This document shows, in pieces, positions 4,286-26,005 of a stretch of 64,000 nt of DNA; within the stretch, counting starts at the first letter, position 1; each line of letters begins with the position of its first letter. Both the position numbers and the translations under genes were made by a program. Location: assembly GCF_964204645.1 (NCBI RefSeq), contig NC_134032.1, positions 2,476,416-2,540,415 on the forward strand, given 5' to 3'. Source of the stretch: Tubulanus polymorphus. Lineage: Eukaryota; Animalia; Nemertea. Below the pieces are notes generated by a model. That model worked only from the letters and a program-made list of their open reading frames with translations. It searched no databases and was not told the origin of the DNA.

Positions 4286-4983
4286 ATGAGATGTATACTA
4301 CAGCAATTATGAGATATATATACAATACAGAGACAAAGAGACTGAATTCAAGTAATCAGAGATGATACAAACTATGGAAAATTAACGTAGAAACAGTTAA
4401 ACGCTAAAATGGATTAAAGGGAAGCAAACCAAAAGGTGATTATAAACAACAATAGTGAGTATAATTATAAATTGAAACTTGACATCAGTAGTAAAGAGAC
4501 AAACTAAGGGGCAGTTGAATTAAAACAAAGGTGATTACAAGTTAAGAGACTAAAATTAATGAGTGACAAATAACAAAGGATCAAAGGGGAAATCAAGTGT
4601 TGAGTTTAACCAGTTTACAGAGGAATTTTGATATTTTGATATTTGAAGTTTATTATGGGGTGAAAAATCATTGTTAAGATTTACAACGTTGTTCGAATTT
4701 TCAATTATCAATGCAGATTCCAAAATATGTCTTTTAGTTTTATCGTTGCAAGGGTAAAATCAATTCATCATTAGCGAAATCAAAATTGTGTGAGTTCTGA
4801 AATACATGACTAGCAACTCCGCCTTCAGGTTTAAAGTTTTTTACATCTAACTTGTGCTCTTTTAAGCGTTGGTTAAGGTTCCGACCTGTTTCTCCTATAT
4901 ATACTTTGTCGCAAACTTTACAAGGTATTTTATAAATTTCACAGTTGAGGGATTCGGTTTTAGGTTTGTTATTAATCAATATG

Positions 4984-5391
4984 AGTAATAGGGGTTTAGT
5001 TGTTCTAGGCCAAAGGTCGAACGTAGAGCTCATTAAAAAACAAATATTCAAAGTAATTTAAAACTATAATATATTTTCATAGCCGTGTGCATTTTATATT
5101 ATAACTAGATATTTATTCTAAGATATTAATAATTTAAATTTTAAAAGCATATTGTATTAAATCAATTGGTCGCTCCGCTTCGGTACCGCTCCGCTCCGCG
5201 ACCAATTGATTTATTTACAATACACAAATTCATATAATCAAATATATTCAAATAATAATAAATATTCTATTATTTAACTAAAATACACACGGCTATGAAA
5301 ATATATTATAGTTTTAAATTACTTTTAATATTTGTTTTTAATGAACTCGACCATTCAACCTTTAACCTAGAACAACTAAACCCCTATTACT
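4984..5391. repeat. Left terminal imperfect palindrome (408 bp) of the small element
   Basis: 4984 AGTAATAGGGGTTTAGTTGTTCTAGG pairs with CCTAGAACAACTAAACCCCTATTACT ending 5391; apical stem ATCAATTGGTCGC/GCGACCAATTGAT at 5161-5210. Confidence 0.93.
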
Positions 5392-5504
5392 CTTAAAATA
5401 TTCATATATATGAATAACATATAAATTGATAGATTATTCAATATAAAAGTAAAACGAATAATTAACGAGCTCTTATAGAATAGATATATAGATATATTTT
5501 AAAC

Positions 5505-5885
5505 ATATTTCAATATTTATATTTGTATGAGTTAGATTTTTAAACATAAAAAATGTGGGTAAAGTGTGAGTGAAATAATTCATATTTAAATCATTGAATA
5601 TTTATATTTATATGTGTTAAATTCTTGATTTTTAAACATTAAAAGTGTGAGTAAAGTGTGAGTGAAATAATTCATATTTAAAACAGTTAATATTTATATT
5701 TATATGTGTTAGATTCTTCTTTTTAAACATAAAAAGTGTGAGTAAAGTGTGAGTGAAATAATTCATATTTAAAACAGTGAATATTTATATTTGTATGTGT
5801 TAGATTCTTATTTTTGAACATAAAAAGTGTGAGTAAAGTGTGAGTGAAATAATTCATATTTAAAACATTGAATATTTATATTTGA
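5505..5885. repeat. Subterminal tandem repeat, ~4 copies of ~90 bp
   Basis: Unit contains AATATTTATATTT..AAAAGTGTGAGTAAAGTGTGAGTGAAATAATTCATATTTAAA. Confidence 0.9.
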
Positions 5886-6560
5886 ATGAGTTTTAATAAA
5901 AATTTTGTTATAAAAATGAAGAAAGAAGAAGAACCCAACTTAAAAATCGAAATCAATCAAACTAATAAATCATTTTCACAGTTTAACATTAGAAATTATA
6001 TTTCAGCAACAAATTTTGTGTCCGCCAGACATTATAAAATCGATAACATAACTATGATTAATCAAATATTATCAAATGAAATTTATTTAATTACTGAACT
6101 AGTAGATACTTTTGATAATGGCGTTAAAAATCCTAAATTGTTCAATACAGTTTTAAATTTTAAAGGAACTTCAGATGAAAACATAATAAATATTCTTAAA
6201 ACTCCTTTCAATGAAAGAAATGATGATATAATACTTTCTAAAGATTACAATGATTTGATTAACTTAAGAATTGAAAAAAGACAATTATATTATTTCAATT
6301 ATGATAATAAACAAACTATCTATAATGAAAATTCATCAAATATTGGTATTCAATGTGAATTAGATAATGAAAAATCATATATATATATATCAGATATTGC
6401 AGTTCAATGTTATTTAGATGTTGAATTTAGAAAATTCAATCCTATTGAAAAAGTGTATTGTTATTGCAGCGGCAAATATTTAAGATCACATAAATCAAAA
6501 CATTATCAAACAGTTAAACATATCAATTATGAAAAGAATAATAAATATATATTGAAATAA
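5886..6560 (+). CDS. Hypothetical protein with C-terminal Zn-finger-like motif (start may be the ATG at 5916)
   Basis: Intact 224-aa ORF; C-terminal CYCSGKYLRSHKSKHYQTVKH; decayed homolog at ~37570-38117. Confidence 0.7.
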   Translation: MSFNKNFVIKMKKEEEPNLKIEINQTNKSFSQFNIRNYISATNFVSARHYKIDNITMINQILSNEIYLITELVDTFDNGVKNPKLFNTVLNFKGTSDENIINILKTPFNERNDDIILSKDYNDLINLRIEKRQLYYFNYDNKQTIYNENSSNIGIQCELDNEKSYIYISDIAVQCYLDVEFRKFNPIEKVYCYCSGKYLRSHKSKHYQTVKHINYEKNNKYILK

Positions 6561-6718
6561 GAGTATGTTTCAAATATAAAGTAGTTAAAGCATCGAGAAA
6601 TTAGTTTAATAAATAACTGTTAGGTAGTAAGTTTAATTGTTATTTGATTTGAAACATATAAAACTTATTTCTAAAATATTAAATATTTATCAATTTAATA
6701 ATTTTTTTTCTTAAATAA

Positions 6719-6937
6719 ATGGATGGTTTCATTCCAACTGGGAAAAGTGATTTGAAGCATTATCTTGTAGCAGGAGGATTAATATTGGCAGCATTATATT
6801 TTTACTATGAGAATTTTTCAAAAGATTTGATATATGAAAATAATAAATTAAGTAAAAAATTAAAGAAGTTAAAAGGAAACAATCACAGAAATAAAAAGAA
6901 TAAAAAATGTAATTTAGAAAATGATTTAGAGGATTAA
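6719..6937 (+). CDS. Small membrane protein with basic tail
   Basis: YLVAGGLILAALYFYY hydrophobic helix; preceded by T8-CTTAAA-TAAATG; decayed homolog at ~43020-43170 on the minus strand. Confidence 0.65.
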   Translation: MDGFIPTGKSDLKHYLVAGGLILAALYFYYENFSKDLIYENNKLSKKLKKLKGNNHRNKKNKKCNLENDLED

Positions 6938-6976
6938 AACAGCATCTTTTAATTTCATATATTTTGACTATAAAAA

Positions 6977-7269
6977 TGAGTGAAAATATATTAAACTTAT
7001 TACATCTATATATAAAAATCAACAGAATATTAAATCAATTATTATGCTTACAGGTTTATTTTCATTCTCAGTTCATACTACAAAACAGTTGTTAACAATT
7101 CTATGATTGCTGTAAAATTAGATACACTGAATTAATAGAAAATATAAATTATATTTCAGATAGATAGAATAATATTAAATGCTGTGAAGTATGTAATAAA
7201 AGATATAAAAATTTAAAGAGTTTAAAAACTCATAAATATATTCATGAATTTCTTGTTAAATCTATTTGA
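6977..7269 (+). pseudogene. Disrupted small ORF (MSENILNLLHLY...)
   Basis: Frameshifted homolog of the 42784-42969 ORF MSDNILNLLHLIYRNQEDIKLIIMISGLLS. Confidence 0.55.
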
Positions 7270-7316
7270 ATTCTAGTCAATTCTTGTTAACCAATAGCGT
7301 GACTAGAATTCAAATA

Positions 7317-7530
7317 GAGCGGAGCGGCAGCGAAGCGAAGCGACCAATTGATTTAATACAATATGCTTTTAAAATTTAAATTATTAATATCTTAGAATAA
7401 ATATTTAGTTATAATATAAAATGCACACGGCTATGAAAAAATATTATAGTTTCAAATTACTTTTAATATTTGCTTTTTAATGAGCTCGACCGTTCGACCT
7501 TTGGCCTAGAACAACTAAACCCCTATTACT
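7317..7530. repeat. Right TIR of the small element (outer arm plus apical loop only)
   Basis: Reverse complement of ~4984-5197; preceded by a separate 19-bp-stem hairpin at 7261-7318. Confidence 0.88.
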
Positions 7531-8121: not shown

Positions 8122-8698
8122 AGTAATAGGGGTAATGGGCTTTCAGGCCAAAGGTCGAACGGTCGAGCCCATTAAAAAACAAAATATTAAAAGTAATTAA
8201 AAAACTATAATATATTTTCATAACCGCGTGCATTTTATATCAAAACTAAATATTTATTCTAAGATATCAATAATATAAAAAGCATATTGTATTAAATCAA
8301 TTGGTCGCTCCGCTTCGCCACCGCTCCGCTCCGCGACCAATTGATTTAATTACAATACACAAATTCAAATAATCAAATATATTCAAATGATAATAATTAT
8401 TCTATTATTCAACTGAAATGCACGCGGTTATGAAAATATATTATAGTTTTTTAATTACTTTTAATATATGTTATTAATGAACTCGATCATTAAACCTTTA
8501 GCTTGAAAGCCCATTACCCCTATTACTCTTAAAATATTCATATATATATGAATAACATTTAAATCATTGAACTTCTAAAATCAATTTTAATAAAAAATAT
8601 AGTATTAAAATGGAAGCAAATAAGTACTACTGCCCAACATGTAATATCGATATAGATAAATCCCAAAAAGCAAGACACAATAAAACTAGAACACATTT
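8122..8698. repeat. Left TIR, containing a 406-bp hairpin (8122-8527) and a copy of the first ~26 PolB codons (ATG 8610)
   Basis: Reverse complement of 25923-26488; differences seen are one substitution, a 5-nt indel in the apex and a 7-nt indel at the inner edge. Confidence 0.95.
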
Positions 8699-9744
8699 GT
8701 TTTTAGTCCAGTTGGTTAAAGCAAAGACATTTATCGAATTAAGGAACTCAACACATAGTGAAAAATATGTTGAATCGTTATAAACACCCGATAATACTCA
8801 GCTATATAGTTGGTTGTATTAGCTCCAGTAAACATATGTTACCAGCTTATATTTCAATTGTAAAGAGTTAATTAATTTCATTGATCTAAATGCCTTTATT
8901 ATTGATTTTTTTTCCAACTTCAACGCGTTGTGTATACGGCGAACGTTAGCGAATCACAAATCTCATAATTTACAAGTCTCAACACGCTTGTTCTAGATGT
9001 TTTTACTAGAAAATGATTCTATTTTAACCTATATACATTCAATGTACAGAGCTATAGAATAAATCTATAAATTCACAGCTGTTACAGTTGTTACTATAAC
9101 GACGAGACATTATTACACGTCATAATCAGAAACGTGTAGAATATTCTAGAACCGGAACTAGATGACGTGGCATAATCAACGACGTGTCATTCTAGAAATC
9201 GCCCCGGAAATGGATATACGCTGTAATATTGTGCTCAGGATATTCTATCTTTCGAAACGAAATAAGGAGTTTATAGTTTACAATTATAAATCTAAATGTA
9301 AGTACTGTTTGTTGTAGTTATTAAGGCTATTAAATACGAAACCTTTAAATATATTTAAGTGTATTTAGTATATCTTTTAGATAGTTAGAGTTACCGCTAA
9401 TATCTTTTAGATTAATAAAACGCCATACGCATCAAGAAGTGATAGAGAAACTCAAGATACTCTTTCTGACTGAGGAATCAACAGCAATGGATATCAAATC
9501 AATAGAAATTAGCACAAGAAACACAAGAATCACCAAAAGATCGTCGAAGAAACTATATAAGAATTTCAAAAACATTAAGACTCCAATGATTAAGTTTAAC
9601 ATTTGTTGATGTAGTTAAATATTTACCAGCAATTGAAAAAATGTTTGTAATTATAAATTGTATTTATAGAAATCAAATGATGTATTGGAAGAAACGGCCG
9701 AACAACTTGTATAATGTATTGTGTAAATCTGATTGATGAATTTT

Positions 9745-10084
9745 TATGTTCGGTCGTTTCTATTCAGAATGAATATATAATTATGATTAGCGCATGCGCA
9801 TTAAGCAAAAGCGCTCCTATAAGAGCGGTTTTGCCTAATGCGAACACGTTTAGATATTTTATGTCGGTCGTTTCTATTTACATAATTATATATTCATTAT
9901 GTAAATATAATTATGATTAGCGCATGCGCATTGATCAAAAACGCTCCTATAAGAGCGGTTTTGCCTAGTGCACATGCGTTTGAATTTTCTATGTTCAGTT
10001 GTTTCTATTTCACAGAATGAATATATAATTATGATTAGCGCATGCGCATTAAGCAAAAGCGCTCCTATAAGAGCGGTTTTGCCC
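9745..10084. repeat. Three ~120-bp tandem units, each with GCGCATGCGC and a small stem-loop
   Basis: AATTATGATTAGCGCATGCGCATT..CAAAA(G/A)CGCTCCTATAAGAGCGGTTTT; GCGCATGCGC at 9790, 9920, 10038. Confidence 0.9.
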
Positions 10085-10222
10085 AGTGGTATTATTTAGA
10101 TATCAAGGAATCGAAACAACTTATCAAAAGCAGCGAGGAATGAAAAAGGATGACGTTGATCGAAGAAATGGAAGAGGATTCTAAAATTATTAACCGATTT
10201 AGTAAAAAAATACGTATAATAA

Positions 10223-10888
10223 ATGGAACCAGAACAACCACAAACTATCAATATTACAAATAACACTGGCGTTATAAACATATATTACAAGAAATGTTCT
10301 AAATGTGAATTAGATAAATCATTAACAGAATTTAGTAAGCGTAAGATTAGCAAAGATGGTTTTCAATATTGCTGTAAAACTTGTACTAAACTATATACCA
10401 AACAATATCGAGAAGATAATATAGAACATTATAATTATTATATGACAAAATATATGAGAAAAAGACATCAAACAGATCTTAATTTTAGATTGAAACAATG
10501 CTTAAGGTCTAGATTAACACAATTATTCAACAAAGAAACACATTCAGAAACACTATCTAATTTGTTGGGTTGTTCAGATGAATTTCTCAAATCATGGATT
10601 ATATTTCAATTCGATGATAAAATGAATATAGATAATTATGGGGATTATTACCACATTGATCACGTGTTACCAATATCTAAATTTAACATGAATGATGAAT
10701 ATAATAAAAAACTTATTTGGGGTTGGAAAAATTTAAGACCTTTAGAAAAGAAAGAAAATCAAACCAAATCTAATAAACTAGATTTACAGTTATATTTAGA
10801 ACAGTTAACAAAAGCAAAGAAATTTATTGATCAATGGAATAATAATCCAAATAATGAACAATACGTTGAGTTTTTAATGAGTGGTTAA
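10223..10888 (+). CDS. HNH-family endonuclease of the type seen in large DNA viruses
   Basis: N-terminal KKCSKC..EF..DG..CKTC Zn motif; YHIDHVLP..NLRPL..KENQTKSNK HNH motif. Confidence 0.8.
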   Translation: MEPEQPQTINITNNTGVINIYYKKCSKCELDKSLTEFSKRKISKDGFQYCCKTCTKLYTKQYREDNIEHYNYYMTKYMRKRHQTDLNFRLKQCLRSRLTQLFNKETHSETLSNLLGCSDEFLKSWIIFQFDDKMNIDNYGDYYHIDHVLPISKFNMNDEYNKKLIWGWKNLRPLEKKENQTKSNKLDLQLYLEQLTKAKKFIDQWNNNPNNEQYVEFLMSG

Positions 10889-11113
10889 AGAATAATATAT
10901 CTCAAATAAAATATAATAAAAATTACATACCTTCAACTATCTATTATTTCTATTTTAATTTTTAATATTTTCTTTTCAAAAAAGAATACTTTATATCACA
11001 AATAAAAAATACTAAAAAAACAATAACTAATACTAGAATTCTTAAGCTTTAACTAGCTAGTATCATTTGAAGAATACTTATAATACTATTCTTATTAAAT
11101 TTCTCTAATATAA

Positions 11114-11719
11114 ATGTCTAAGAAATCGAATAAGAATAATATTTAAGTTGAAAAAACTTTGGAAGATTTAGGTCTAACAGATGATAATGATAATGTGGCA
11201 ACTAAATGTGATAATAAAATTGATAACAATATTGATTACGAGTACTATTTATATTGTAAGCATCATCTAGAACTATTGATTGCGAGTGGAAAAACTAAAG
11301 AGTTTATTGGTAAAACAATAACTTTTCAAGAATTAGATAATATGAATAAAGAAAAAGTAATCAAATATTTTAAGATTTATGAAGAGTCAAGGTTAGCTAG
11401 AATAAATGATTCTATTTCAGATGGTATTATCAAATGTTATTCAAAATTATGTAACCAGTTAATACCAATTAATGATGAAAATAAATTATATAATGATTTG
11501 AAAAATGACTATTTAGTTATGACTGAATTACAAAAATGGGTTGGATATGCTTCATTCCAATTAGGATCGGTTATGACATTGATTTCTACTGGAGTTATAA
11601 CATTTTCGAACATCAAACCTATGGAATATAAATCAGGTAAGAACGAAACAGATGTACTACAACAAAACGTCGAAACAGAAAATGAATCAGAACAAAAATT
11701 AACTAAAATAAATGAGTGA
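11114..11719 (+). pseudogene. Conserved Maverick hypothetical protein with a premature stop at 11144-11146
   Basis: TAAATG start at 11114 is in frame with the 11159 ORF; homolog at 31620 reads through this position (VPIEKTLDDLG vs I*VEKTLEDLG). Confidence 0.75.
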
Positions 11720-12074
11720 TGGAGTTAAGAAAAAGGCTAGATCCGAGAAACAAATTAAATGGGCAAGAGAATTAGGTAAAAGATCTTCAGAATTAAAAAA
11801 AGCTAAGAAAAAGAAATTAACCGATATAAATGAATCACCTGGTATTGATTCAAATAATAATCCATCTAATAGATTCAGCACAGCTGAATCTCATAATTAC
11901 TTATATATTACAATTGGGTTAATCACAATTATTATATTCTCCGGTGTAATATATAAATCAAAATTCAAATCTGATGATAAAGATGATTCCAATGATGATA
12001 AACCTATTATACCAGAAAATAAATCAAATCATAAATCAAATGAAAATAAATCTAAAATATTATTAATGGATTAA
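11712..12074 (+). CDS. Basic single-TM protein
   Basis: RSEKQIKWARELGKRS basic N-terminus; YLYITIGLITIIIFSGVIY hydrophobic helix; TAAATG start. Confidence 0.75.
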   Translation: MSDGVKKKARSEKQIKWARELGKRSSELKKAKKKKLTDINESPGIDSNNNPSNRFSTAESHNYLYITIGLITIIIFSGVIYKSKFKSDDKDDSNDDKPIIPENKSNHKSNENKSKILLMD

Positions 12075-12077
12075 AAT

Positions 12078-13166
12078 ATGATGAAAAAAGAACAATATTT
12101 AAGAGATTTATATTATAACCCAGAAAGTGAAGTATCATTTTCCAACGTTTCAGAATTATGGAATAAAATTAAATCTGATAAAGAAAAAATAAAATATAGT
12201 GAATTAAAATCATGGTTACAAAATCAACCCACATATCAAATTCATAAAAAGATGGATAAAAAATATTTAACAAGAAAAGTAATGGTTTCATATATCGATC
12301 AACAATGGCAAGCAGATTTAATTGACATGAAAAACTTAGAAGAATATAACAAAGGATATTTCTGGATACTAAATGTTATAGATATATTCAGTAGATACGC
12401 ATGGAGTATCCCGATTAAAAATAAAACTGGTATAGAAGTAACAAATGCTTTTAAATCTATATTTAAAGAAGCTATTCCAGATAAGATACAATTTGATGAA
12501 GGTAAGGAATTTTATAACAAACATTTTAAAAAACTATTAACTGATAACGATGTAGAATATTTTTCAACACATTCAGATAAAAAAGCATCTGTTATAGAAA
12601 GATTTAATAAAACATTGAAAACTAGAATGTGGAAATATTTCACCGCTAATGAAACATATAAATATATCGATGTGTTAGATGATTTAATGAAAGGTTATAA
12701 TAATTCTAAACATAGTTCTATAAATATGAAACCTATACAAGCTAGAAAAGAAGATAATTCAGAAATAGTTTGGAATAATTTATATGGAGCATTTGTTACA
12801 CATGATTTTGGAGAACCTAAATTTAAAATAGGACAACATGTTAGAATTTCTAAATATAGAAAAACATTTTATAAAGGTTATACCCCTAATTTTACAGAAG
12901 AAATATTTAAAATTAAAAAGATAATATTAACTAAACCATTTGTTTATAAATTGTTTGATTTAAAAGATGAAGAAATATTAGGTTATTTTTATGAACAAGA
13001 ATTATCATTAGTACCAAATCCAGATGATATAGAATACAAAATAGAAAAAGTATTGAAAACAAAAACTCTTAAAGGAAAAAAGTATTCTTTGGTGAAATAT
13101 AAAGGATATGATGATAAATTTAATGAATGGATTTTATCTAGTAAAATTAAAAGAATAAATGAATAA
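12078..13166 (+). CDS. Retroviral-like (rve) integrase with C-terminal chromodomain
   Basis: WQADLID, VIDIFSRYAW, QFDEGKEF, IERFNKTLK (D,D,E); YKIEKVL..VKYKGYDDKFNEWI chromodomain. Confidence 0.96.
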   Translation: MMKKEQYLRDLYYNPESEVSFSNVSELWNKIKSDKEKIKYSELKSWLQNQPTYQIHKKMDKKYLTRKVMVSYIDQQWQADLIDMKNLEEYNKGYFWILNVIDIFSRYAWSIPIKNKTGIEVTNAFKSIFKEAIPDKIQFDEGKEFYNKHFKKLLTDNDVEYFSTHSDKKASVIERFNKTLKTRMWKYFTANETYKYIDVLDDLMKGYNNSKHSSINMKPIQARKEDNSEIVWNNLYGAFVTHDFGEPKFKIGQHVRISKYRKTFYKGYTPNFTEEIFKIKKIILTKPFVYKLFDLKDEEILGYFYEQELSLVPNPDDIEYKIEKVLKTKTLKGKKYSLVKYKGYDDKFNEWILSSKIKRINE

Positions 13167-13773
13167 AGATTTATTTATATTTGAACCACATAATATGTTA
13201 ATAACTGGAGTTACGAATTGTGGTAAAACACACTTCATATTAGATTTATTAGAAACTATTTATAAGAATCATTTTAAAAATATAATATTATTCTGTCCTA
13301 CTTATGAAATGAATGAAACGTATAATAGAGATATAGTTTTTAAAGATAAAAAGTTTATTATATTAAATTCTAAAACAGTGAAAGATAATTTAGATAATTG
13401 TATAAAAATTGCATTAGATATTTATAAAGGATCAAATACATTATTTATTATTGATGATTGCGCAAATTTACATGATTCTAAAATTAGAGAAAGTGAGTTA
13501 TGTTATTTAGCTTTCTCTGGTAGACATTTTGGGATAACAACTTGGGTTTTAAATCAGAAATATAATTCAATTGTGAAAGATTTTAGAGAGAATATAAGAT
13601 TTCTAGTTTTATTTTATAACAAAGATAGAAAATCTATGCAACAATCATTGGAAGAAAATCAAATTATACCTCCTGAATTACATGATGAATATATGAATAA
13701 ATTAAAAAATAATAAAGGTTCCAAATTACTTATGAGATTACAATTTCCATATGAATATAAATTTATAAAATAA
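13159..13773 (+). CDS. A32/FtsK-like DNA packaging ATPase
   Basis: Walker A GVTNCGKT, Walker B FIIDD, GRH motif, LNQ. Confidence 0.93.
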   Translation: MNKDLFIFEPHNMLITGVTNCGKTHFILDLLETIYKNHFKNIILFCPTYEMNETYNRDIVFKDKKFIILNSKTVKDNLDNCIKIALDIYKGSNTLFIIDDCANLHDSKIRESELCYLAFSGRHFGITTWVLNQKYNSIVKDFRENIRFLVLFYNKDRKSMQQSLEENQIIPPELHDEYMNKLKNNKGSKLLMRLQFPYEYKFIK

Positions 13774-13785
13774 AATCCTAATTCA

Positions 13786-14316
13786 AAATATTATAGAATT
13801 CACTGTATATTGATGGATGAGTGGATGAATTGGATGAATCGGATGAATTGGAAGAGTGGATGAATTGGAAGAGTGTAATAATATATAATTTACATATGAT
13901 TTTTATTTTTAAAACAGTAAGAGTTTGATTTGAAGATGTCATATAATAATAAATATATTTTTATAAAATAATAAAATGACAGATAATAAATGTCATATAA
14001 TAATAAATATATATTTATAAAATAATAAATAATAAAATGATAAATAATAAAATGATAAATAATAAATATATTTTTATAAAATAATAAATAATAAAATGAT
14101 AAATAATAAGTGTCATATAATAATAAATATATATTGTGTTAAATTTAATAAAGAATAAAAATATTATATTTATACTCATACTATTCTTCCAATTTATGTG
14201 TTAAAAAGTAAAATATATATATTATCATACTCATCCACTCTTCCACTCACCCAATTCATCCAACTCTTCCAACTCATCCATTCATCCATCAATATACAGT
14301 GAATTCTATAATCTTT
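13786..14316. repeat. Inverted-repeat-bounded AT-rich spacer between convergent gene blocks
   Basis: ATTATAGAATTCACTGTATATTGATGGATGA (13790-13820) and its reverse complement (14282-14312), each followed inward by GGATGAATT/GGAAGAGT arrays; centre has ATAATAAA repeats. Confidence 0.88.
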
Positions 14317-15397
14317 TTAATTTTCATTTTCATATTTTTCTTTAAGCTTATTGTATTCTAAATATATATCCCTTTGCATTATCTTTGATATAAGTCCTAA
14401 ATGATTCCCAAATTTATATTTATTGAATGTTTTTCTTGAAAATATTTTTGGAATATAATTTTCGATTTCAGTTTTAGATGGATGTTTATTTAAAAATTCT
14501 CTAAAATCATCATATTCAAGTTCAAATAAGTTCATTGCATAACTTACATTTGGTTTAAAGTTATCTAACTTTTTCAATATGGTAACTATATCATTACTCA
14601 ATAAATAATGTATAATTGTTTTTCTATACCACCGATAATCTAATATATTATTATTATTAAATTTTGGATTTATAACTGTTGGATCTTCTATTACATTATC
14701 TGTACCAATATGTTTAATTGAGTATTTAATAATAATTTAATTATTTCAATTGTTTATCATATATTACATATTCTTTACATTTTTCACACCAAGATTTAAA
14801 TACTTTTATTGCATGGGCTGAATCATTTCCACTTTTTGTTTTTAATTTATAATGTTTTGCCCAATTAGCCTTTGTTATACATTCATTACAGAAAGCACAA
14901 TAATTCTGATCCTCTTTACATTTATCTTTATATATATTGGCATATGTTTTTACTAATTGTAAAATATGTTCATCTTTTTTGATGTGTAATAAATAATCAT
15001 TGTAATTATCAAAATCTTCTTCACAATACATACATCTGATGTTATCTTTTGGTTGAACATTTGATTTTTCTATTTTAGGTTCAATATTATGTTCTATTTT
15101 TGTTTCAATCTTATCATCATTCGATGTAGAAGGTATAACATTATCTTCTATTTTTGTTTCAATATTATCTTCTATTTTTGTTTCAATATTATCTTCTATT
15201 TTTGTTTCAATATTATCTTCTATTTTTGTTTCAATATTATTATTACGTTCAATTAAATATTCTTTGTATTGATTTAATTCATTTAATAAAAATGTTCCAA
15301 TATATTCATTTATTCTTTTATAAGGTATTACATAATACAAATCATCATTGATTTCTTTATCAGCTTTGATTCTTTCATATACTTTACCTCCTTCCAT
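14317..15397 (-). CDS. Zn-finger protein with IETKIEDN repeats; ORFs 14741-15397 and 14317-14601 are probably one gene broken near 14740
   Basis: CMYCEEDF..HIKKDEH and CAFC..HY C2H2-like motifs; 24-nt tandem repeat; the downstream frame is open from 14736 without its own ATG. Confidence 0.6.
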
Positions 15398-15429
15398 TTA
15401 TTATATATATTTTTATTAAAGTTAAAATT

Positions 15430-16677
15430 CTAATACATAACACTATCTAATTGTGAATTTACAATATTTAATTGCGCGTCAGATATAATATAAATGTGCA
15501 TTTTAAAATTTTTGATTCCCTTTTTCTTTGTCATGAATAATTGTATTCCATCCTTTGTATTTTGTAATTTTTTCCCAGAACCATGTAATGAATTATCTTC
15601 AGTTGTTCTAAAATCTAACCATAATGCAAATTTATTACCGGTATAATAATCAATTTGATTAATGTTACAATTTTCAAATGATTTTATTTTTTCATTCATA
15701 AAATGTTTTCTAATTTCTGGCCATTGATCTATCATTCTCATTCCTTGACAAAATATTTTATTCGCTATACCTTCGATAGTTATTTCTACTTTTGTTATTT
15801 CAGGATTATAATAATTGTCAACATTTATTGCGCCATTAGTATACGTTCCAATAGTAAAAAATATTAATATACCTTTAATAGATCTTCTAGGAAAGTTAAT
15901 ATTCTCATTTATTATTTCATCATTTGCATTAATAGTTACAGTTTTAAATTTATCAATATAATCATATAATAATGAAAATCCTTGATTGTATTTAGTTTGA
16001 ATTATACTTGAAATATTTTCATCAGTTACTGTATCATATTCTAAACATATATTCGATAATTTATAACTCATATCTTTATTAACGCTAGATAATACAATTT
16101 CATTTACAGGAGCAAATGTTATCTCAAATATAATATCTTCTTGAATTGCGTATTTATATAAAGGTGCATTATTATTTATCAATTCAATGTCTAATGGAAT
16201 TTTATATTTGCTTCCATATATACTTTTTATCAATTTATCTACATCATTTGTTAATATTGCGCTATTAGCTTCTGATCTTAATTTATTTTGGTTTTCTGAT
16301 TGGATGCCTTGAAATATCATATTATTTCTATTTTCTTTAGTTAACCATAAATCTTTATAATGCATAAATAAATTATAATCATCTAATGAGAAAACTGTTT
16401 GTGGACCAATCTTTATTGTTAACTTTTTAATCAAATATCTTCCAACATTATCAACAACATAATTATTATTATTACCGATTACTTTTATATCAGCTGATAA
16501 ATAAATACTGTTTGGAACGTAAAAAGTATTTTGTGTTAATCTAGGAATTCTAACGTATAAAGTTTCATCGGGATTAATATTTGAAGGGTTATGAGTAATT
16601 ATATGATGTGATCTTTCTGCTTTAATAGCATTAGATATTCTATGATTCTTCGAAGGACTTATATAACTCCCACTCAT
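15430..16677 (-). CDS. Probable major capsid protein (double jelly roll)
   Basis: Intact 415 aa, beta-rich pattern (LYVRIP, YLSADIKV, IKKLTIKIG, YKLSNICLEYD, ININFP..IKGILIFF, ITKVEITIEG, FALWLDF); size and context fit a Polinton MCP. Confidence 0.72.
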   Translation of the reverse strand: MSGSYISPSKNHRISNAIKAERSHHIITHNPSNINPDETLYVRIPRLTQNTFYVPNSIYLSADIKVIGNNNNYVVDNVGRYLIKKLTIKIGPQTVFSLDDYNLFMHYKDLWLTKENRNNMIFQGIQSENQNKLRSEANSAILTNDVDKLIKSIYGSKYKIPLDIELINNNAPLYKYAIQEDIIFEITFAPVNEIVLSSVNKDMSYKLSNICLEYDTVTDENISSIIQTKYNQGFSLLYDYIDKFKTVTINANDEIINENINFPRRSIKGILIFFTIGTYTNGAINVDNYYNPEITKVEITIEGIANKIFCQGMRMIDQWPEIRKHFMNEKIKSFENCNINQIDYYTGNKFALWLDFRTTEDNSLHGSGKKLQNTKDGIQLFMTKKKGIKNFKMHIYIISDAQLNIVNSQLDSVMY

Positions 16678-16748
16678 TTATTTAACAAAAAAATTAATTA
16701 TTTATTTTTTGATATCATGGTTTACTTGATATTTTTTGATATCATGGT

Positions 16749-18440
16749 TTACTTGATATTTTTTGATATCATATTTACTAAACCAAAAATAATAGCACTT
16801 ACAACTGTAATTAAAAATAAAATAATATGTTCAGCAGCAAAGTTAATAATGTTTCCTGCAGATTTCAATATAAAACCAACAATTGAAGCAATAACTCCTG
16901 GTAAAGCTGCAGCAGATTTTTTAGATAGTTCCCATAAATATTTTGCTAATTTCTTTAAACCATCTTTAACTTTATCTTGTATAGAATTATTACCTGGGGG
17001 TTTATCCGGTTTATTTGGAGTAGGAGTAGATTTCAAAGCATTTGATATTGCTAAACCAATTGTTGTAAATAACATAGTTACAGCTGTTACAATTGAAAGA
17101 ATTGTTATTCCTTTTAACTTAAATAATAACTTTATTCTGTCTTTTAATGATATTTCAGAATCTGGTTTAATCAACAAATCTTTAAAAATAACTTTTAATT
17201 TTTTAATATGATTAAGATCATATGATTTTAATAATATATCTCTTTCTTCTTTTTGTAATTTTATGTTATATTCTAAATCATCTATTTCTTTTACTAAAGC
17301 TAACTTTCTGCTTTCAAAATCAGCTTCATAAACTACTTGATGATTTCTATTTAATTCTAATTGTTTTAATTCTTCATCTACATTAACTAATTCTTTTTCT
17401 AACATGGTTATTTTAGAAAATCTCATCTTAATATTAGCAATTTCATCAGCTGATACTTGTATACCTTTAATTTCTCTACGTATTTGTTCAGGAAATGCTT
17501 CTAATTTTTCATCGGTTAAATTAAGAAATCCTTTTTCTAGTAAATATTGCAGTCGATTTATTCCAGTTTCAGAACCAGATGTATCTGATATACTATTCAT
17601 CAGTTCTTCTGAATCTCTTAATCTATCAATTTGTTTTTCTAATTGTAATTTACTTGAATCATTATCAATTTGTTGAGTGTCTCTTCTCGATGTTTCGGGT
17701 GTTGAAGATCTCAATCTATCTAATCTATCTCTATTGTCTTCCATTTCTGGATCAAAATCAGTAGGATTTGGATTTTTAAATGGTGAATATTTGTTTATAT
17801 CAATTTTAGGAATTGGTTCTTCTTCATTTACTCTATCGAGTGCATTCCATATAATTCTGAGAAATTCTCTACCACCTTTTGAATTTTCAATTGTAGATGT
17901 TGCTCGCATTTCAGGTTCAAAAATATTTTCTTGACCCATTTTAGATAATTGAATTGTTACAATATTCCTATTTAAATCAAGATTATAATACCATGCATCA
18001 TTTTTAAATTCTAAATTATTTGTGAAATATGGGTCATCTTTAAAAATTTGTTCTACAACATCTTCAGTATCAATTTCATCTATTACAACTGATGGTAATA
18101 ATTCGTTAACAATTGTATCTGTTACTCTAGATTTCATTTTGAATAATTTCATAGGTTTATCAGGATATTTTTCTTGTTCTTTTACTAATAGTTTCATAAA
18201 TTCTTTTCTTTCTCTTCTAGTTGTAATTCTACCCCTTTCAGGAGCTTCTAAATATTTATTTATTTTTTCACGTAATTCGGGATCATCATCATCATCATCT
18301 TCACCTAAATTAGTATTATATGCTGATTCATCATCATTATCAATATTAGCACCTGCATCATTATAATCATCATCAATATATCCTTCATTATTATTTCCCA
18401 TTTCTCCCATTTCATAATCTTCTCCACCTTCTACATCCAT
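16749..18440 (-). CDS. Large protein with acidic N-terminus, coiled coil and C-terminal hydrophobic/amphipathic helices
   Basis: Intact 563 aa; GITILSIVTAVTMLFTTIGLAI, LPGVIASIVGFIL, IILFLITVVSAIIFGLV. Confidence 0.85.
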   Translation of the reverse strand: MDVEGGEDYEMGEMGNNNEGYIDDDYNDAGANIDNDDESAYNTNLGEDDDDDDPELREKINKYLEAPERGRITTRRERKEFMKLLVKEQEKYPDKPMKLFKMKSRVTDTIVNELLPSVVIDEIDTEDVVEQIFKDDPYFTNNLEFKNDAWYYNLDLNRNIVTIQLSKMGQENIFEPEMRATSTIENSKGGREFLRIIWNALDRVNEEEPIPKIDINKYSPFKNPNPTDFDPEMEDNRDRLDRLRSSTPETSRRDTQQIDNDSSKLQLEKQIDRLRDSEELMNSISDTSGSETGINRLQYLLEKGFLNLTDEKLEAFPEQIRREIKGIQVSADEIANIKMRFSKITMLEKELVNVDEELKQLELNRNHQVVYEADFESRKLALVKEIDDLEYNIKLQKEERDILLKSYDLNHIKKLKVIFKDLLIKPDSEISLKDRIKLLFKLKGITILSIVTAVTMLFTTIGLAISNALKSTPTPNKPDKPPGNNSIQDKVKDGLKKLAKYLWELSKKSAAALPGVIASIVGFILKSAGNIINFAAEHIILFLITVVSAIIFGLVNMISKNIK

Positions 18441-18456
18441 TTACATAATAAAAAAA

Positions 18457-19845
18457 TTAAAATTTAAAATATAATATTCCTCCGATTACAATTCCTATAC
18501 AAGTTATAACTAATTTAGTATTTTCATGGGATTTATTATCATCATTTAGTTTAATTATATCATGTTGAATTTTATCAGTTTTTATATTTTCTGATGTATT
18601 GTAATCTTTTATTTTAGAATCATTATCCAATTTAATATTCTTAGTTTTAGTTTCTGTTGATTGAATGTGTTTTTTATTTTTTTCACCTTCCATTAATTTT
18701 GGAGCAGTAATAATCTTTTTATTTATATCATTTAATCCAAATGAATTATTTATTGTTGCAGTTTTAATTAGATTATTATAACCAATTATGTTTCCCATCT
18801 TTAATACTAAATCATTAGAAATAATTAATAGATTAGGGCCTATACAATAATTAAGTCTTACATGAGATTTATCTAAATAATTTTGATATCTTATAATGTT
18901 TTCTGGAATCGATCTATTTTTATCATTATGTATGGAATCTTCAAATAAAACTTTAAATTGTTTTTGTGTATCGAATGATGTATTCAAATTTCCAATTATC
19001 GGTGATCTTGTTTCAACTTGTGATCCTAGAATACAAATCAAATAAGTTCTAATAGATTGATTTATTCTTTCTATACCTGATTTAGTAAAACCTTCACTAT
19101 TTTCTAAAATAAAATAAACCCAACCATTATTGTTTTCTTGTTTTAAATTATCATAAAATTTTGGTAATTTATTGAAATTTAATGTTTCTAAATCCTTTGT
19201 TTCTATTTTACCATAACCTAATTTATTATTATAGATATTATAAAAACTATTAGATGTTATGGGAAGTGCACAATATTCTGCAATCTTTTTAGGGCAAGGA
19301 AGTGATCTTAATGTTCCAATTTTTGTTCTAAAATCAGAATTATTTATATCTATATTAAATTCATTGCAAATTTTATAAAACTTAGATAAATTAATATTAT
19401 TATCTAATTCTTTAAAATATCTAGATCCTGGTAAAGCACACTCTAATTCATTTAATATTATTCTGATTTGAAAGTATGTATGAAATCTAAATAAACTTTG
19501 AATTAGTTTATATTTAGAATTATTCAAATGATCATTCCAACTAATTCCACATCCTGTTGTTGCACAATAAACAGCAAAATTTAATTGGTTCTGCCAATAC
19601 TTCATATTAGATTTTAATAACCATTGTTTTTCATCTTTCAATTTTTTAAAATTAATTAAATATACATGAAATATATTTTCCATCTTTGCATTAAAATTAT
19701 TAGTTTCAGTAACATAAATTTCTAAATTAGTTAATGAATCTAAAACTTCATTTCTATATGTAATATCTTTATTAAAATCTATTGCTGGAATATTATATTT
19801 AATTAATTTATTATATCGGAAAGCTTTTGGAAAACTATCTACCAT
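18457..19845 (-). CDS. Hypothetical protein with C-terminal TM anchor
   Basis: Intact 462 aa; WQNQLNFAVYCATTGCGIS; ends LVITCIGIVIGGILYFKF. Confidence 0.85.
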   Translation of the reverse strand: MVDSFPKAFRYNKLIKYNIPAIDFNKDITYRNEVLDSLTNLEIYVTETNNFNAKMENIFHVYLINFKKLKDEKQWLLKSNMKYWQNQLNFAVYCATTGCGISWNDHLNNSKYKLIQSLFRFHTYFQIRIILNELECALPGSRYFKELDNNINLSKFYKICNEFNIDINNSDFRTKIGTLRSLPCPKKIAEYCALPITSNSFYNIYNNKLGYGKIETKDLETLNFNKLPKFYDNLKQENNNGWVYFILENSEGFTKSGIERINQSIRTYLICILGSQVETRSPIIGNLNTSFDTQKQFKVLFEDSIHNDKNRSIPENIIRYQNYLDKSHVRLNYCIGPNLLIISNDLVLKMGNIIGYNNLIKTATINNSFGLNDINKKIITAPKLMEGEKNKKHIQSTETKTKNIKLDNDSKIKDYNTSENIKTDKIQHDIIKLNDDNKSHENTKLVITCIGIVIGGILYFKF

Positions 19846-19861
19846 TTATATAACTAAAAAA

Positions 19862-20296
19862 TTAATAATTTGTTAATTCTTTTAATAATTTATCTTGTTC
19901 TTCAACTGTTATATGACCATTTAAACTTATTATATAATCTAGTGTGTTCTTTAATTTATTAATTTCTTTTATATTAGTTTTGATTTTTTCTTTATTACTT
20001 TTTATATTTAATTTTGAACTTATACCAGTTAAAACACTTGAACTTAATCCTAATACACCAATTGATATAGCTAAAGGTGTTAATGGACTGAATATTGCTA
20101 GAAATGTTATTACAGAACTAATTGTAACCGAACCACTTATAATCAAATAATATATAATTTTACTTTTTAAATATTTTTTCTTTTTTATCTTTAAGTCACT
20201 TTCAAATTCTAATATTTGTTTTTCTAAATATGTTTTTAATTTAGTTTTATTTATATCATGAGGAATAATATCAATACTATCAACTTTATCTTCCAT
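19862..20296 (-). CDS. Two-TM hairpin protein
   Basis: 144 aa; two hydrophobic segments between helical charged regions; TAAATG start. Confidence 0.8.
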   Translation of the reverse strand: MEDKVDSIDIIPHDINKTKLKTYLEKQILEFESDLKIKKKKYLKSKIIYYLIISGSVTISSVITFLAIFSPLTPLAISIGVLGLSSSVLTGISSKLNIKSNKEKIKTNIKEINKLKNTLDYIISLNGHITVEEQDKLLKELTNY

Positions 20297-20315
20297 TTAT
20301 TTAGAATAAAAATTA

Positions 20316-20738
20316 CTAATTAGTAAACTTATAAGCAACAAATATAACAATAACAGTTCCGCCTAAAATCCAAATTATTTCATATTTCTGTTGTTCTTTA
20401 CTTGGGGTATAATAATCTGATAATTTGGGTTTGTATAGATGTAATTTTTCTTTATTTGTTACTGTGTTATATAAACTCATTGCATCATCAACTGATTGAA
20501 AATCTCTATGTGAAATCTTCTGATTATATAATTCTTTATTGATGTAATCCATATAGTTTTGTCTCTTTTCTCTATATTCTTCTGCAGCTTTATTGTATTT
20601 CTCTAACGCTAAGTTATGTCTTCTTTGTTCTCCTAATGAACTATTTTTATCAATATGTTTAAATAAATAACCACCACCAGTAAATGCTAAAGCGTTAACA
20701 ATTGCCGATCCTATAATAGTTATAATTGCAGAAGCCAT
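20316..20738 (-). CDS. Small protein with N- and C-terminal hydrophobic helices
   Basis: MASAIITIIGSAIVNALAFTGGGYLF..IIWILGGTVIVIFVAY; TAAATG start. Confidence 0.82.
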   Translation of the reverse strand: MASAIITIIGSAIVNALAFTGGGYLFKHIDKNSSLGEQRRHNLALEKYNKAAEEYREKRQNYMDYINKELYNQKISHRDFQSVDDAMSLYNTVTNKEKLHLYKPKLSDYYTPSKEQQKYEIIWILGGTVIVIFVAYKFTN

Positions 20739-20762
20739 TTATTTAGCAAAAAAATTATGCAT

Positions 20763-20984
20763 TTATATGGGAGGAATATATTTTTGTTTTTCCAAATAAT
20801 CAATAGTTAAATTAGATAAAGTAACTGCTAATGTTAACTTTAAAATATCATTTATATCAAATCTATCAACATTAACACTTCCCATTTTGAATACTTTTTT
20901 TAATACCATTGAATAACCAACAGTTCCAACTGATAGTAATGCGCCATTATATAATCCAGTTATTATCCACTTATTATCACTCAT
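20763..20984 (-). CDS. Small hydrophobic protein
   Basis: 73 aa, tightly packed between neighbours, T7-GATAAA-TAAATG start. Confidence 0.75.
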   Translation of the reverse strand: MSDNKWIITGLYNGALLSVGTVGYSMVLKKVFKMGSVNVDRFDINDILKLTLAVTLSNLTIDYLEKQKYIPPI

Positions 20985-21620
20985 TTATTTATCAAAAAAA
21001 TTACTATCATCAACATATTTAGTTATCTTAGTGATGATTATTTGAACATTTATTTCATTACTAGTTTTATGATTATCATATATTTTGGATAATATGTTTT
21101 TAATATCACCAATAATTCCATCTTCATTTAATTCATAATATTCTAAAGGTGATTTAATTAAATCAATTACTTTTTCTATATTATACTTTTCTTTATCAAT
21201 CATTGATGCATTGTTAAATGATTTACTTTTTATATCAGTAATTACATCATTTAGTTTAATTCTCATTTCTTTACCATGTTTAAAATCAAACCCAAAACAT
21301 ATACTCGGTCCAACAGTTGCACCCATTTTCAACCGAGCTCTTCTATTAATTTCTTGAGCTAATGTTTCTAAATTATATAATCCTGGTTTAAGATAAAGAT
21401 GAAACCATTTACTTTTATTTCTATCATGAATTAAAAAGACTCTATGTTCAATAGACTTATCTGATACATTGTAAAAAGAATTACATAAACTTATATTTAC
21501 TAATTTTAAATCAACACAATTTTTGAATTCTCTGTCTAATTGTACTAGTAAATTATGTGATTTATAATTTGTAAGTTTTCTAGAATCTACAAATATTCTG
21601 TATTCTTTTAATTCCGCCAT
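20985..21620 (-). CDS. Possible minor capsid (penton-like) protein
   Basis: N-terminal IFVDSR..VQLDREFKNCVDLKLVNISLCNSFYNV and LKPGLYN resemble single-jelly-roll minor capsid N-termini; short for a penton. Confidence 0.5.
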   Translation of the reverse strand: MAELKEYRIFVDSRKLTNYKSHNLLVQLDREFKNCVDLKLVNISLCNSFYNVSDKSIEHRVFLIHDRNKSKWFHLYLKPGLYNLETLAQEINRRARLKMGATVGPSICFGFDFKHGKEMRIKLNDVITDIKSKSFNNASMIDKEKYNIEKVIDLIKSPLEYYELNEDGIIGDIKNILSKIYDNHKTSNEINVQIIITKITKYVDDSNFFDK

Positions 21621-21637
21621 TTATTTTACATATTTTC

Positions 21638-21979
21638 TCATTCGAAATCTATTTCATGGTGCCCTTTTTCATTCTTACCTTTGTATACGAAATAGAAATC
21701 TCCAGAACATAATTCTTCTAGATCTTCACTTGATAATCTATGAAATCTATCTGGTAAATAAGTTCTGAATTTATATTTATTTCCTTTTAATCCTTCATAT
21801 TCTAAATGAATTACTAATTTATCTCCATATTTATTAGTAATTGTTTCAATGTTAGTAATTAAATATTTCTTGTGAATTGTTTACTCAGTTAGTTTTTTAA
21901 ATTTATAATCTACAGATTTGACGCTTGAAGTATCTTTAATCCTATCTAAGAATTCACTGTGTACTTGTTTACTCTCCAT
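21638..21979 (-). pseudogene. Small conserved Maverick protein (possibly OB-fold/SSB-like), one in-frame stop
   Basis: MESKQ..FKKLTE*TIHKKYLITNIETITNKYGDKLVIHL..TYLPDRF..YKGKNEKGHHEIDFE; TAAATG start; homolog at ~32395-32660. Confidence 0.65.
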
Positions 21980-22007
21980 TTATTATACACATTTTTATTG
22001 AAATTGA

Positions 22008-25000
22008 TTAACACGCTAGAATCCTTTTCATAATCTCATTTTCTTTTGTTTCTTCTCTTTTGAATTTTATATATTCATCTAAATTGCAACCATAGGCGAC
22101 TGTGTGGATTCCATCATCTAAAATATATCTTTTATCATCAAATGGGTTTAGACTTATCTTCTCTATCTCTTCAATATACATTTCATGATCTTCAGATCTT
22201 AAACATTTCATCTTATGTTTTCTAACTTCTTCATTAAATATACAATTGATGTAATCTTTAAAATGAATATTATTTTCTACTACACTTTTGGTTATTCCTT
22301 TTAACTTTTTAGCTTCATGTTCTTTAGTTTTATAACTATACATTTTAGATCTAATACCAATGAACTCTATCATTTCTTCACCGCCTAATTCATCCTTAAA
22401 CTTCCCAGGAACTTTTTTATTATCATTGATAAACAATTCATGATCTTTAGGATAGTTACTGAAATCAAAATGATGATTTAATATTTTTAAATCACCAGTT
22501 ATGTTATCACTTTTTATCTTTAATATGTAAGAATCTGTATCTAGATATAAGATTTCTATATTTTTTTTCCCCAAAATGGGGTTGCAATACATTATAATAG
22601 AATTCATACATCAATAGCTTTGAAATTTCTAAAACTGCAGCTCCAACATAAATAGGTTTATTGAACTTCATAGAAGTTCCTTTTAATTTAACTGCTGCTA
22701 AATTTTCATCGAATATTCTATTACCTATAAATTTCGGATACGATTGTAAATGTCTAATTCTTTTACCATTACTAACTAACTCAATATCATTTCTATTTCT
22801 TATGTTTTCACATGTTTTTCCATAGAACGCATTATTCATTAGTTTAAAGTAATCTTTTTCAAAATCAGTTTTAGCTTCAGTTCTCTGTGTAGTATTAAAA
22901 TCTATAAATTTTTCTAACCACTTAGATTGATTAAATGAAATATATCTATGTACTTTTTTTAATATCATTCCTTGATTCAAATAAAACTTCAACATTCTAT
23001 AATGTACTACATAATTATATTTATCTTCTTGAGTTACCATTAACTTTTCAGTATGAATATGATTATCGGGTTTAATTCTTTTTTGATAATTTGATAATTC
23101 TTCATGTTTAACAATTTTATGTTCGGGACAATATGCTAGATTTCTAGATTTGAATTTAATATTTTCGGGGTATTCTAAATCTACAACAAAGAAGTAACCA
23201 GTATCTGAATCATCTGCAATATCTAGGATTCTTTTCTTCCAATCAAATTTATCAATTTGTAAAACTTCAGTTATTTCAAACATCCCATAAGGTTGTGGTT
23301 CTATCATTGCCCAACCATAAAGATTATTTGCATCTATGTATAATAATTTATATCCAGGATTATCATTTACATTGAAATATCTATCACCCAATACACCTGA
23401 AACACCTCCTCTTATAGATTTTTCAAATAATAGTAATTGATCTATATTTGTTAACAAATCCATTTTTATATCTGTAAATTTTAATCCACAATCCCATGTT
23501 AATCCTGGTGATGAATAACAATGACAAGGATCAATATTGAAATATTTTAGGTTTACATCTCTAAACCTTTCAAATATATCGGTTAATAATAATACATCTG
23601 ATTTTAAATATAAATCTACTAATTGTCCATGATTTTTAATTTCAAAATGATTCCAAATATTCAATGTTCTATTATATACTTCATCTTTAACATATTCATT
23701 TTTTAATTCATCATAGAATTGTTCTTTCAATAATTCAGTTATTTTAAAATCATTATGATTTTTTAGAAAGAATATGGAATTGCGCCTTTACATCTCATTA
23801 ATTTTAAATCATCATAATTTGGGTAATATTCTTTTAATATCTTTAATTCATCATCAACTAATGATTTTGATAAGTTATCTAATGAACTATTTAAAAATCT
23901 ATATGAATCTATAAATCTTAGACAACCAAATTGGAATGATATATAATTCTCAGATGTTTTAGCTAACATTCTAAATTTATAAGTTGGTATTTTATCTTTT
24001 GATTTATTTGAATTTAATATTTCTATTTCATTATTAATTTCTTCTATTTTATGAAACAGTTGCTTAATGAATAAATGCGCGTCATACCCCGATAAATTGT
24101 GAAATATAATGGGGACAAAATTTACTTTTTTGGCTTGTAAATTGCAAGCCTCATGCGCTGCACCTCTAAATTTACCATTCAAATGATCGTGGTCTCTTAC
24201 TTTTTTATCTTTATAATTAAATATCTTTTCACAATAATAACATTTATCTGCAAACTCAAATTCTTCTTTATCTTCTTCTGTCATAATTATTTCTTTATTT
24301 GTATTCAATAATTTACTAAATCTTATTTCATATTCAATTAATAAGTCACAAAAATGATTGATAACATTTTCATTTCTATAATTATAATATTCACTTTCAA
24401 TTAGTTCTGGATAATCAGATTTTATATATAACCCGAAAGCTGCAGCTGATTGATGAATCTTTTTAATAGTATTTGTTTTTGGTGGTTCATCTGAATAATC
24501 ACTTTCATTAGAATTTAATTTCTTTCTTTTATAATATATATCTTTTCTATCTTTATCTGTTAATTCTTTATTCAATGATTCAAAATCTCCATATATTACA
24601 AATGGTACTTTATTTTTGTAATCATATTTTTTGAATTCTAATATTTTATCTTTTTCATTTGGTAAAACTAATTTACAATAATCATGATTATCACATAGTT
24701 GTTTATGATTTAATAATGTACTTTCATTACTGAATCTATGTAAACATTTTCTACATAGATATATTTTATGGTGATCATTTTCTGATTTGAAAAATAAATC
24801 GATTTGTTTAATCCACATATAATGATTTTCATAATATAGTATATCTATAACATCATTTGAATCATAATCTTTTGATAGGTATAAAGGTTCTAATGTATAA
24901 TGTTTAATATTATTTCCTTTTGTATTTGGTAATTTAATTAAATCAAATACATTTATTTTAAGATTATTATCTCTTTCTATTTTTGGAATATTTTTAATTC

Positions 25001-26005
25001 TAACAGGATACTTATCTATCTTATAATTATTTTCAAATTGTTTATAATGAGTTAATCTATAAGTATGTTTATTATAATCTTCAACTGGATGTAAACAACT
25101 TATTATAGCCCATATAAAACATTTATTATCAAAATTTTGTATATTTATTACACCATTAGTTTTAAATGGTAGTTTAATATAACTTGTTCCATTTATACTA
25201 TCATCTTTATAATATGATAAATTATTTTCATCAATTGGTTTTGATTTAGTTAACTTATTATATTTTGTGTTATAAACATGTAAAGTTATAAATATTATCT
25301 CATCAAATATTAAACCAGATCCTTCAAAATATTTCTCTTCTATTTTAGTTTTTATTTCATTATAACATTTATTTAATTTATCATCTATATGTTGTTTATA
25401 TTATATATTGGTTTATCTTCTGATTTTATAAACTTTACTTTAGAAGATATACTTATTTTAGGATATTCAACATCTGTAATTATTTTTATTATTTCTTTCA
25501 TATTTTCTAAATGTTTTTTATTTTCTTCTAATGTTTTTCCTTTATGAAATTTAAACTCGATAGCTGCTGGACCAATATCACTTTTAAATGCTTCGGTTAT
25601 CTCTATATCTTTTTTATTATCTAATGAATTAATATAATTTCTTACATCTTCCATGTATGGTCTTTTATTGTTTAATTTATTTTTTATTCTTTTAATTGTC
25701 TTCTGTTTCTTATCGTTATCATTATCAAAATAATCTTCACCTAAAATATCATTATTCTTATTTCTAATATGACTTATAGATTTTAAATGTTCTTTATAAT
25801 ATCTTTTATCACTGAATGATTGATTACATGTATCACATTTGTATGTTTCTTTTTCATTCTTTAATTCTTCTAATTTAGTTTCTAATATATCATCCTTATA
25901 TTCTAGTTTCAATTTATTCTCTAAATGTGTTTTATTGTGTCTTGCTTTTTGGGATTTATCTATATCGATATTACATGTTGGGCAGTAGTACTTATTTGCT
26001 TCCAT
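22008..26005 (-). pseudogene. Protein-primed DNA polymerase B with Zn fingers, vOTU-like domain and endonuclease VII insert; frame breaks near 25385, 23760 and 22560
   Basis: NKCFIWAI..HYMWIK, YGDFES, RDHDHLNGKFRGAAHEACN, FHNLSGYDAH, YIDANNLYG, KLMNNAFYGK, YLDTDS, SKMYSY. Confidence 0.95.

Follow-up and report, generated by a model that had tools for sequence, protein, structure and literature searches.

A 64,000-nucleotide stretch of the Tubulanus polymorphus genome (the window) contains a 2.5-kb element with Maverick-type ends and three ORFs, for which the first-pass annotation offered two origins: a satellite lineage mobilized in trans or a deletion derivative of an autonomous Maverick. 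The locus raises the question of which of the two gave rise to it. The relevant features are collected in Table 1.

Boundaries and ends of the small element

The small element had been credited with a target-site duplication of its own, and a perfect AATATG duplication indeed flanks it. Moreover, the empty site, in which 4977 is joined to 7531, was crossed by 267 reads with a 6-base overlap in X4, a DNA run with the same species label, about 12% of which was read and which came from a sample other than the source individual. The X1, X2, and X4 reads and contigs all derive from other samples, from which the source insertion may be absent, and contig depths were left out as a measure of copy number. 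Because the host retroelement is multicopy, the empty-site reads represent the clean preinsertion state rather than a polymorphism. Both the small element and a neighboring 18.4-kb element lie inside one stretch of Penelope-like retroelement on the minus strand, with a GIY-YIG domain that exceeded the Pfam cut-off (E 1.4e-5) to the left and a YVDD stretch resembling reverse transcriptase between the two elements. Within this one retroelement copy, a gap of about 590 bp separates two differing Maverick-type elements (window 4500-8121).

Table 1. Coordinates of the small element, its parts, and related features in the window
Feature	Positions	Strand	Remarks
Left target-site duplication AATATG	4978..4983		same hexamer at 7531-7536; empty-site reads
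Small element	4984-7530		~2.5 kb, bounded by AATATG hexamer on both sides
Complete left Maverick-type terminus	4984..5426	+	87% to 8122-8564
Tandem repeats	5536..5883	+	3.8 copies of a 91-bp unit, 94% matches (TRF)
ORF1	5886..6560	+	224 aa, likely start 5916, open, C-terminal Cys/His motif
ORF2	6719..6937	+	72 aa, open, hydrophobic stretch then basic tail
ORF3	6976..7269	+	broken: frame changes near 7007 and 7095, stop at 7165-7167
Probable first deletion junction	7245..7250		6-bp overlap, at hairpin foot
Hairpin	7256..7318		19-bp perfect stem, 7261-7279 with 7300-7318
Main deletion junction	7317..7318		2-bp overlap; hairpin joined to centre of right terminal palindrome
Right terminus, outer half only	7317..7530	-	214 bp
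Right target-site duplication AATATG	7531..7536		matches left hexamer
18.4-kb Maverick	8122..26488		565-bp inverted repeats, TSD AAGAGG; without ORF1-3
Fragment A	37552..38995	-	short palindromic end, repeats, broken ORF1 homolog
Fragment B	41928..43172	-	broken ORF2-ORF3 homologs, ATPase piece, hairpin
Packaging-ATPase gene 3' piece	42465..42525	+	~60 bp, faces ORF3 in fragment B

The left terminus aligned to the terminus of the 18-kb element with 397 matches and 36 mismatches over 443 bp, and it contains an imperfect 408-bp palindrome (4984-5391) with a GC-rich centre and a fold of -113 kcal/mol (z -22). The right terminus aligned to the left with 204 matches, 9 mismatches, and 1 gap, the match ending at the GC-rich centre of the terminal palindrome, and the resulting 214-bp inverted repeat is 86-87% identical to the ends of the 18-kb element. 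The terminal repeats of the small element thus measure at least 443 bp on the left versus 214 bp on the right, whereas those of the 18-kb element measure 565 bp on both sides. The inverted repeats had been described as related to, yet distinct from, those of the larger element; that relationship was upheld, but the two ends are not symmetric. The ends of the small element differ at 9 of 213 aligned bases and those of the 18-kb element at 1 of 560, and for that reason the small element is probably the older of the two.

Neither Pfam nor tblastn and blastp searches with 18 ORFs of the 18-kb element detected pPolB, an RVE integrase, a packaging ATPase, or a capsid gene within 4984-7530, in agreement with the first-pass annotation, which had reported integrase, PolB, and capsid to be missing. 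Judged by its sequence, the small element is a derivative rather than an autonomous member of the Polinton/Maverick group.

The 18.4-kb element carries integrase, ATPase, major capsid protein (MCP), and polymerase genes. In Pfam, its rve integrase and its A32 ATPase both scored above cut-off while its capsid match was weak, and its genes have matches of up to 86% in related loci, which makes it a Maverick. Its polymerase is split over three frames (23766-25397, 22510-23784, and 22011-22607), while that of the related locus L003 is one 1,241-aa ORF; two further genes, one that starts at 11115 and one near 21644-21952, are interrupted as well. These interruptions, despite near-identical ends, could indicate either recent decay or assembly errors. 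Its inverted repeat (8122-8686 and 25929-26488) takes in the initial codons of the zinc-finger gene that lies upstream of polymerase, so that the start of that gene is duplicated at the left end. Most of its genes (10223-21620) start at TAAATG, starts that resemble poxvirus late promoters, and the long palindromic ends are a further unusual trait. A title search of the open-access literature found no paper on poxvirus-like late promoters or long palindromic ends in Polintons.

Deletion junctions and window homologs

Reads were placed on 7040-7400, and the figures that follow come from the best 18 of 118 loose-end rows. At 7318, 47 X4 reads and 2 X1 contigs exited the small element into nonterminal DNA, and at 7317, 626 X4 reads, 4 X1 contigs, and 3 X2 contigs came in from an uncut terminus. 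X4 depth was about 67 at 7300-7312, and an estimated 52 to 59 reads were able to show the state of the junction, which was thus missing from about 80-90% of informative reads. None of the 16 contig pieces listed (209 further pieces exist) spanned the junction. In the best 18 of 118 rows, roughly 10 X4 reads at most were left unaccounted for at the junction, and a few junction-bearing copies are possible. Other copies, in the reads and in fragment B, continue differently on both sides of 7317/7318, as in an internal-deletion derivative. The read-borne DNA beyond the junction had no match in the window; a 14-letter part of it matches 11013-11026, a single match that was rejected since 4 of 100 shuffles equaled it.

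The main junction cuts the right arm of the hairpin, and fragment B carries five more bases there that pair with 7256-7260. A second break at 7245-7250 is likely: X1 and X2 contigs exit at 7248-7250 and come in at 7245, X4 depth drops from about 100 to 58, and fragment B has about 270 extra bases at this position, although a few reads beyond the best 18 of 118 rows may span this site too. An origin of the hairpin in the region upstream of the integrase block was considered and rejected, as 32 of 200 and 19 of 200 shuffled sequences did equally well against the 18-kb element. Comparison of the hairpin with a further Maverick fragment (D) and with related locus L004 gave weak passes (0 of 200 shuffles) among 16 tests, a likeness at the level of motifs only.

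Homologs of the small element had been reported near 37560-38995 and 42690-43170; both are real, but both are broken fragments and neither is a 2.5-kb copy. Fragment A is homologous to the ORF1 region over 37552-38751 (72% over 568 bp) and has 82-bp repeats at 38547-38717 related to the 91-bp repeats of the small element. Its reported hairpin exists as a palindrome at 38852-38995, but the similarity of that palindrome to the terminus of the small element is weak, 8 to 9 of 300 shuffles scoring as high. Fragment B is homologous over 42351-43133 (78% over 440 bp), and after its hairpin has AT-rich DNA and 24-bp repeats in place of a terminus. Its ATPase piece is 75% identical to 13675-13748, with 15 of 21 residues identical and a score of 61 versus a shuffle maximum of 46 (0 of 100 shuffles). 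The retained residues suggest that the ATPase gene was functional until recently in the fragment B lineage. On the far side of the fragment B hairpin, 42040-42115 is an inverted match to the ORF1-ORF2 spacer at 6618-6688 (0 of 100 shuffles).

Further Maverick sequence is present in the window. At 29640-29963 lies a Maverick-type end whose palindrome is shorter (about 147 bp), and beyond it are short stretches that match 21601-21652 and fragment A. The remains of a different Maverick subfamily occupy 30728-32683 and include an ATPase, a homolog of the gene that starts at 11115, and a small convergent gene that L004 has too; the order of the first two is that of L004 and L007 and unlike that of the 18-kb element. 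L004 itself has an ORF at 10340-10981 with a GxxGxGKT motif that looks, by eye, like a deoxynucleoside kinase. Scans of viral contigs based on a terminus pattern, on the ATPase, on the MCP, and on three alignments had no hits, and the same held for prokaryote genomes. Elsewhere in the window are tandem arrays at 44503-45070, 51548-52001, and 55270-55460, with units of 11, 49, and 19 bp, respectively, and a strongly G/A-skewed stretch at 54001-55000.

The three ORFs

Three ORFs had been annotated as lacking an evident counterpart in the 18-kb element, and none of its 18 tested ORFs matched the small element beyond noise. Two of the three stand as open frames; ORF3 does not. At its three breaks, 92 of 145, 64 of 77, and 147 of 159 X4 reads differ from the small element, and the breakage is copy specific. 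The last ORF3 piece resembles a C2H2 zinc finger (zf-C2H2_6, E 9e-5, below the curated cut-off).

ORF1 had no Pfam or NCBIfam family, no relative among 5.8 billion proteins, and none in viral or metagenome contigs; its best Atlas score, 0.76, is a lead only. Residues 183-222, which hold the Cys/His motif, match by themselves 4 sequences among 1.84 billion proteins, and two copies of the motif are present in a gene adjacent to the polymerase in Maverick locus L006. A single-sequence fold of ORF1 was unusable (pLDDT 31.6). The region upstream of ORF1 is similar to the one found upstream of the zinc-finger gene that precedes polymerase in the 18-kb element. Frequent read differences in ORF1 comprised four nonsynonymous changes and one synonymous change, but these five were preselected and are too few to use.

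ORF2 had no homolog in a protein search, and its hydrophobic stretch would fit a small membrane protein. The late-promoter motif claimed for ORF2 was confirmed as a T-rich TAAATG motif that occurs eight times in the window: upstream of ORF2, at six leftward genes of the 18-kb element that include MCP, and in one Maverick fragment. The motif marks the structural-gene block of the 18-kb element.

Conservation of the genes, also part of the earlier claim, was supported by dN/dS values below 1 against the broken window homologs, each from a single pair: 0.63 for ORF1 (166 codons, 17 gap blocks), 0.23 for ORF2 (48 codons), and 0.12, 0.36, and 0.19 for the ORF3 pieces (10, 26, and 41 codons). Genes of the Maverick core block, as controls, gave 0.20 and 0.28. 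Because core genes fall in the same range, values below 1 fit accessory genes of a full Maverick equally well and do not separate a satellite from such a parent. We conclude from these substitution patterns that ORF1, ORF2, and ORF3 were probably functional in replicating elements.

Read depth differed along the element. X4 depth was about 1,430 at the terminus and split at 5426, where 623 reads went one way and a depth of about 570 continued toward the repeats and ORF1; the 623 reads, compared by eye, resemble past this point the polymerase-side end of the 18-kb element. Depth was about 400 over ORF1 and about 100-180 over ORF2 and ORF3, roughly a third of that of ORF1. Judged by these counts, ORF1 may well be a gene often found at Maverick ends, and if every ORF1 end pairs with a polymerase-type end, ORF1 would mark the usual opposite end in this family. 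The far lower depth of ORF2 and ORF3 could indicate either that the three genes are not always together or that divergence is uneven.

Origin of the small element and comparison with known systems

We conclude that the small element probably arose from a larger Maverick/Polinton by internal deletion and has since decayed, the second of the two origins first proposed. This reading rests on the asymmetric ends and halved right terminus, the absence of the junction from most reads, the continuation of fragment B past the junction, and the ATPase piece that faces ORF3 there, as well as on ORF3 breaks unlike most reads, the read split at 5426, the divergence between the two ends, the structural-gene promoter motif of ORF2, and the likeness upstream of ORF1 to the zinc-finger gene. 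Counted against it are the absence of ORF1-3 from all seven related, partial Maverick loci from other sources, the up to about 10 unaccounted X4 reads, the derivation of the reads from other samples, and the depth of ORF2 and ORF3 below that of ORF1. In addition, the two window copies both have ORF3 close to the hairpin, perhaps because they descend from one ancestor that was already deleted.

Such an ancestor could have been a larger nonautonomous element with Maverick ends, ORF1-3, an ATPase relic, and the hairpin but no polymerase, integrase, or capsid gene, kept at tens of copies under purifying selection, carried and amplified in trans by a helper, and expressing ORF2 from the helper's late promoter, with the 2.5-kb copy a further deletion of it. 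We regard this as improbable. The two window copies (78% identical) both have ORF3 within 270 bp of the hairpin, fragment B has only 60 bp of ATPase there, the dN/dS values of ORF2 and the ORF3 pieces are low, and ORF1 and ORF2 lack relatives in public proteins versus 7 for a neighboring Maverick gene, all of which speak for such a parent. The ATPase piece, however, is about as conserved (75%) as the intact-length ATPase of fragment D (82%), which is unexpected for a long-dead relic; the core-gene controls have equal dN/dS; and the seven related loci show many gene orders and lineage-specific genes, such that related Mavericks shuffle order and carry genes of their own.

The satellite option as first proposed, in which the 2.5-kb unit itself is a multicopy lineage mobilized in trans, is very improbable: the clean 6-bp duplication, the two retained outermost ends, and the open ORF1 and ORF2 would suit it, but 47 of about 52 to 59 informative reads lack the junction, no contig piece among the 16 listed spans it, the right end is halved, ORF3 carries breaks peculiar to this copy, and of the two window homologs neither is built like the 2.5-kb unit, the one with ORF2 and ORF3 adjoining an ATPase piece. 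Least credible is a false short element produced by assembly collapse at the terminal hairpin, for although the junction lies inside a strong palindrome, 172 X4 reads switch strand at 7317/7340, and no junction-spanning reads were among the best 18 of 118 loose-end rows, both flanks belong to one retroelement, the duplication is perfect and agrees with the empty-site reads, and the two ends have subfamily-specific bases in common yet differ at 9 positions.

If the small element is a deleted copy, its parent would have been a Maverick from a subfamily that is sister to that of the 18-kb element, with terminus, repeats, ORF1, ORF2, and ORF3 in that order at the end opposite polymerase and a packaging-ATPase gene facing ORF3. 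A Maverick integrase would have inserted the parent into the Penelope-like retroelement, creating the 6-bp duplication. The interior would have been lost in what were probably two deletions, both at hairpins, with overlaps of 6 bp and 2 bp, which would have brought one whole terminus and its first three accessory genes up against the outer half of the opposite one. Mavericks are modeled to replicate by strand displacement, and the loss could instead have occurred in a defective replication product that a helper then integrated; loss after integration is slightly favored. Either way, the small element is probably now inert.

As a deleted Maverick copy, the element has little import beyond repeat annotation, but it shows breakpoints at two hairpins and hints that there is an unseen subfamily of Mavericks whose three accessory genes are orphans. 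Were a gene-bearing satellite its parent, then a virus-like transposon of an animal genome would have a parasite of its own, a situation for which no description was found in the titles and abstract openings of the open-access literature. "Nonautonomous" wording for Polintons/Mavericks was found there as applied to Tlr1.

Polintons typically have a 6-bp target-site duplication and long terminal inverted repeats, the Anolis Polinton measuring 17,487 bp with a 6-bp duplication and 584-bp repeats (PMC3014272), and have a core gene set of pPolB, integrase, ATPase, and protease (PMC4028283, PMC6431247). The small element is similar in its 6-bp duplication, its long inverted ends, and the promoter motifs it has in common with the 18-kb element but differs in its 2.5-kb length, its lack of pPolB, integrase, ATPase, and capsid, and its halved right end. 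Transpovirons, which are about 7 kb and encode an SF1 helicase, are likewise small linear DNAs with inverted ends and without structural genes (PMC5499653), whereas the small element is 2.5 kb and Pfam assigned none of ORF1, ORF2, and the last ORF3 piece to a helicase family. MITE families can arise by microhomology-mediated internal deletion, as in the 116 identical Gnome copies (PMC3814204), and the small element resembles them in a deletion between short overlaps that left both ends; Gnome was amplified, however, and no amplification of the 7317/7318 junction was seen in the best 18 of 118 rows. Fragmented Maverick copies are reported in the Hessian fly, which has 408 copies with accumulated deletions (PMC8504770), and in C. 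elegans, which has partial Polinton copies and inverted-repeat remnants (10.1101/2024.01.15.575659). Like them, the small element would be a deleted, decaying copy of a larger element, but unlike those copies it keeps both outer ends and its duplication and has its breakpoints at hairpins.
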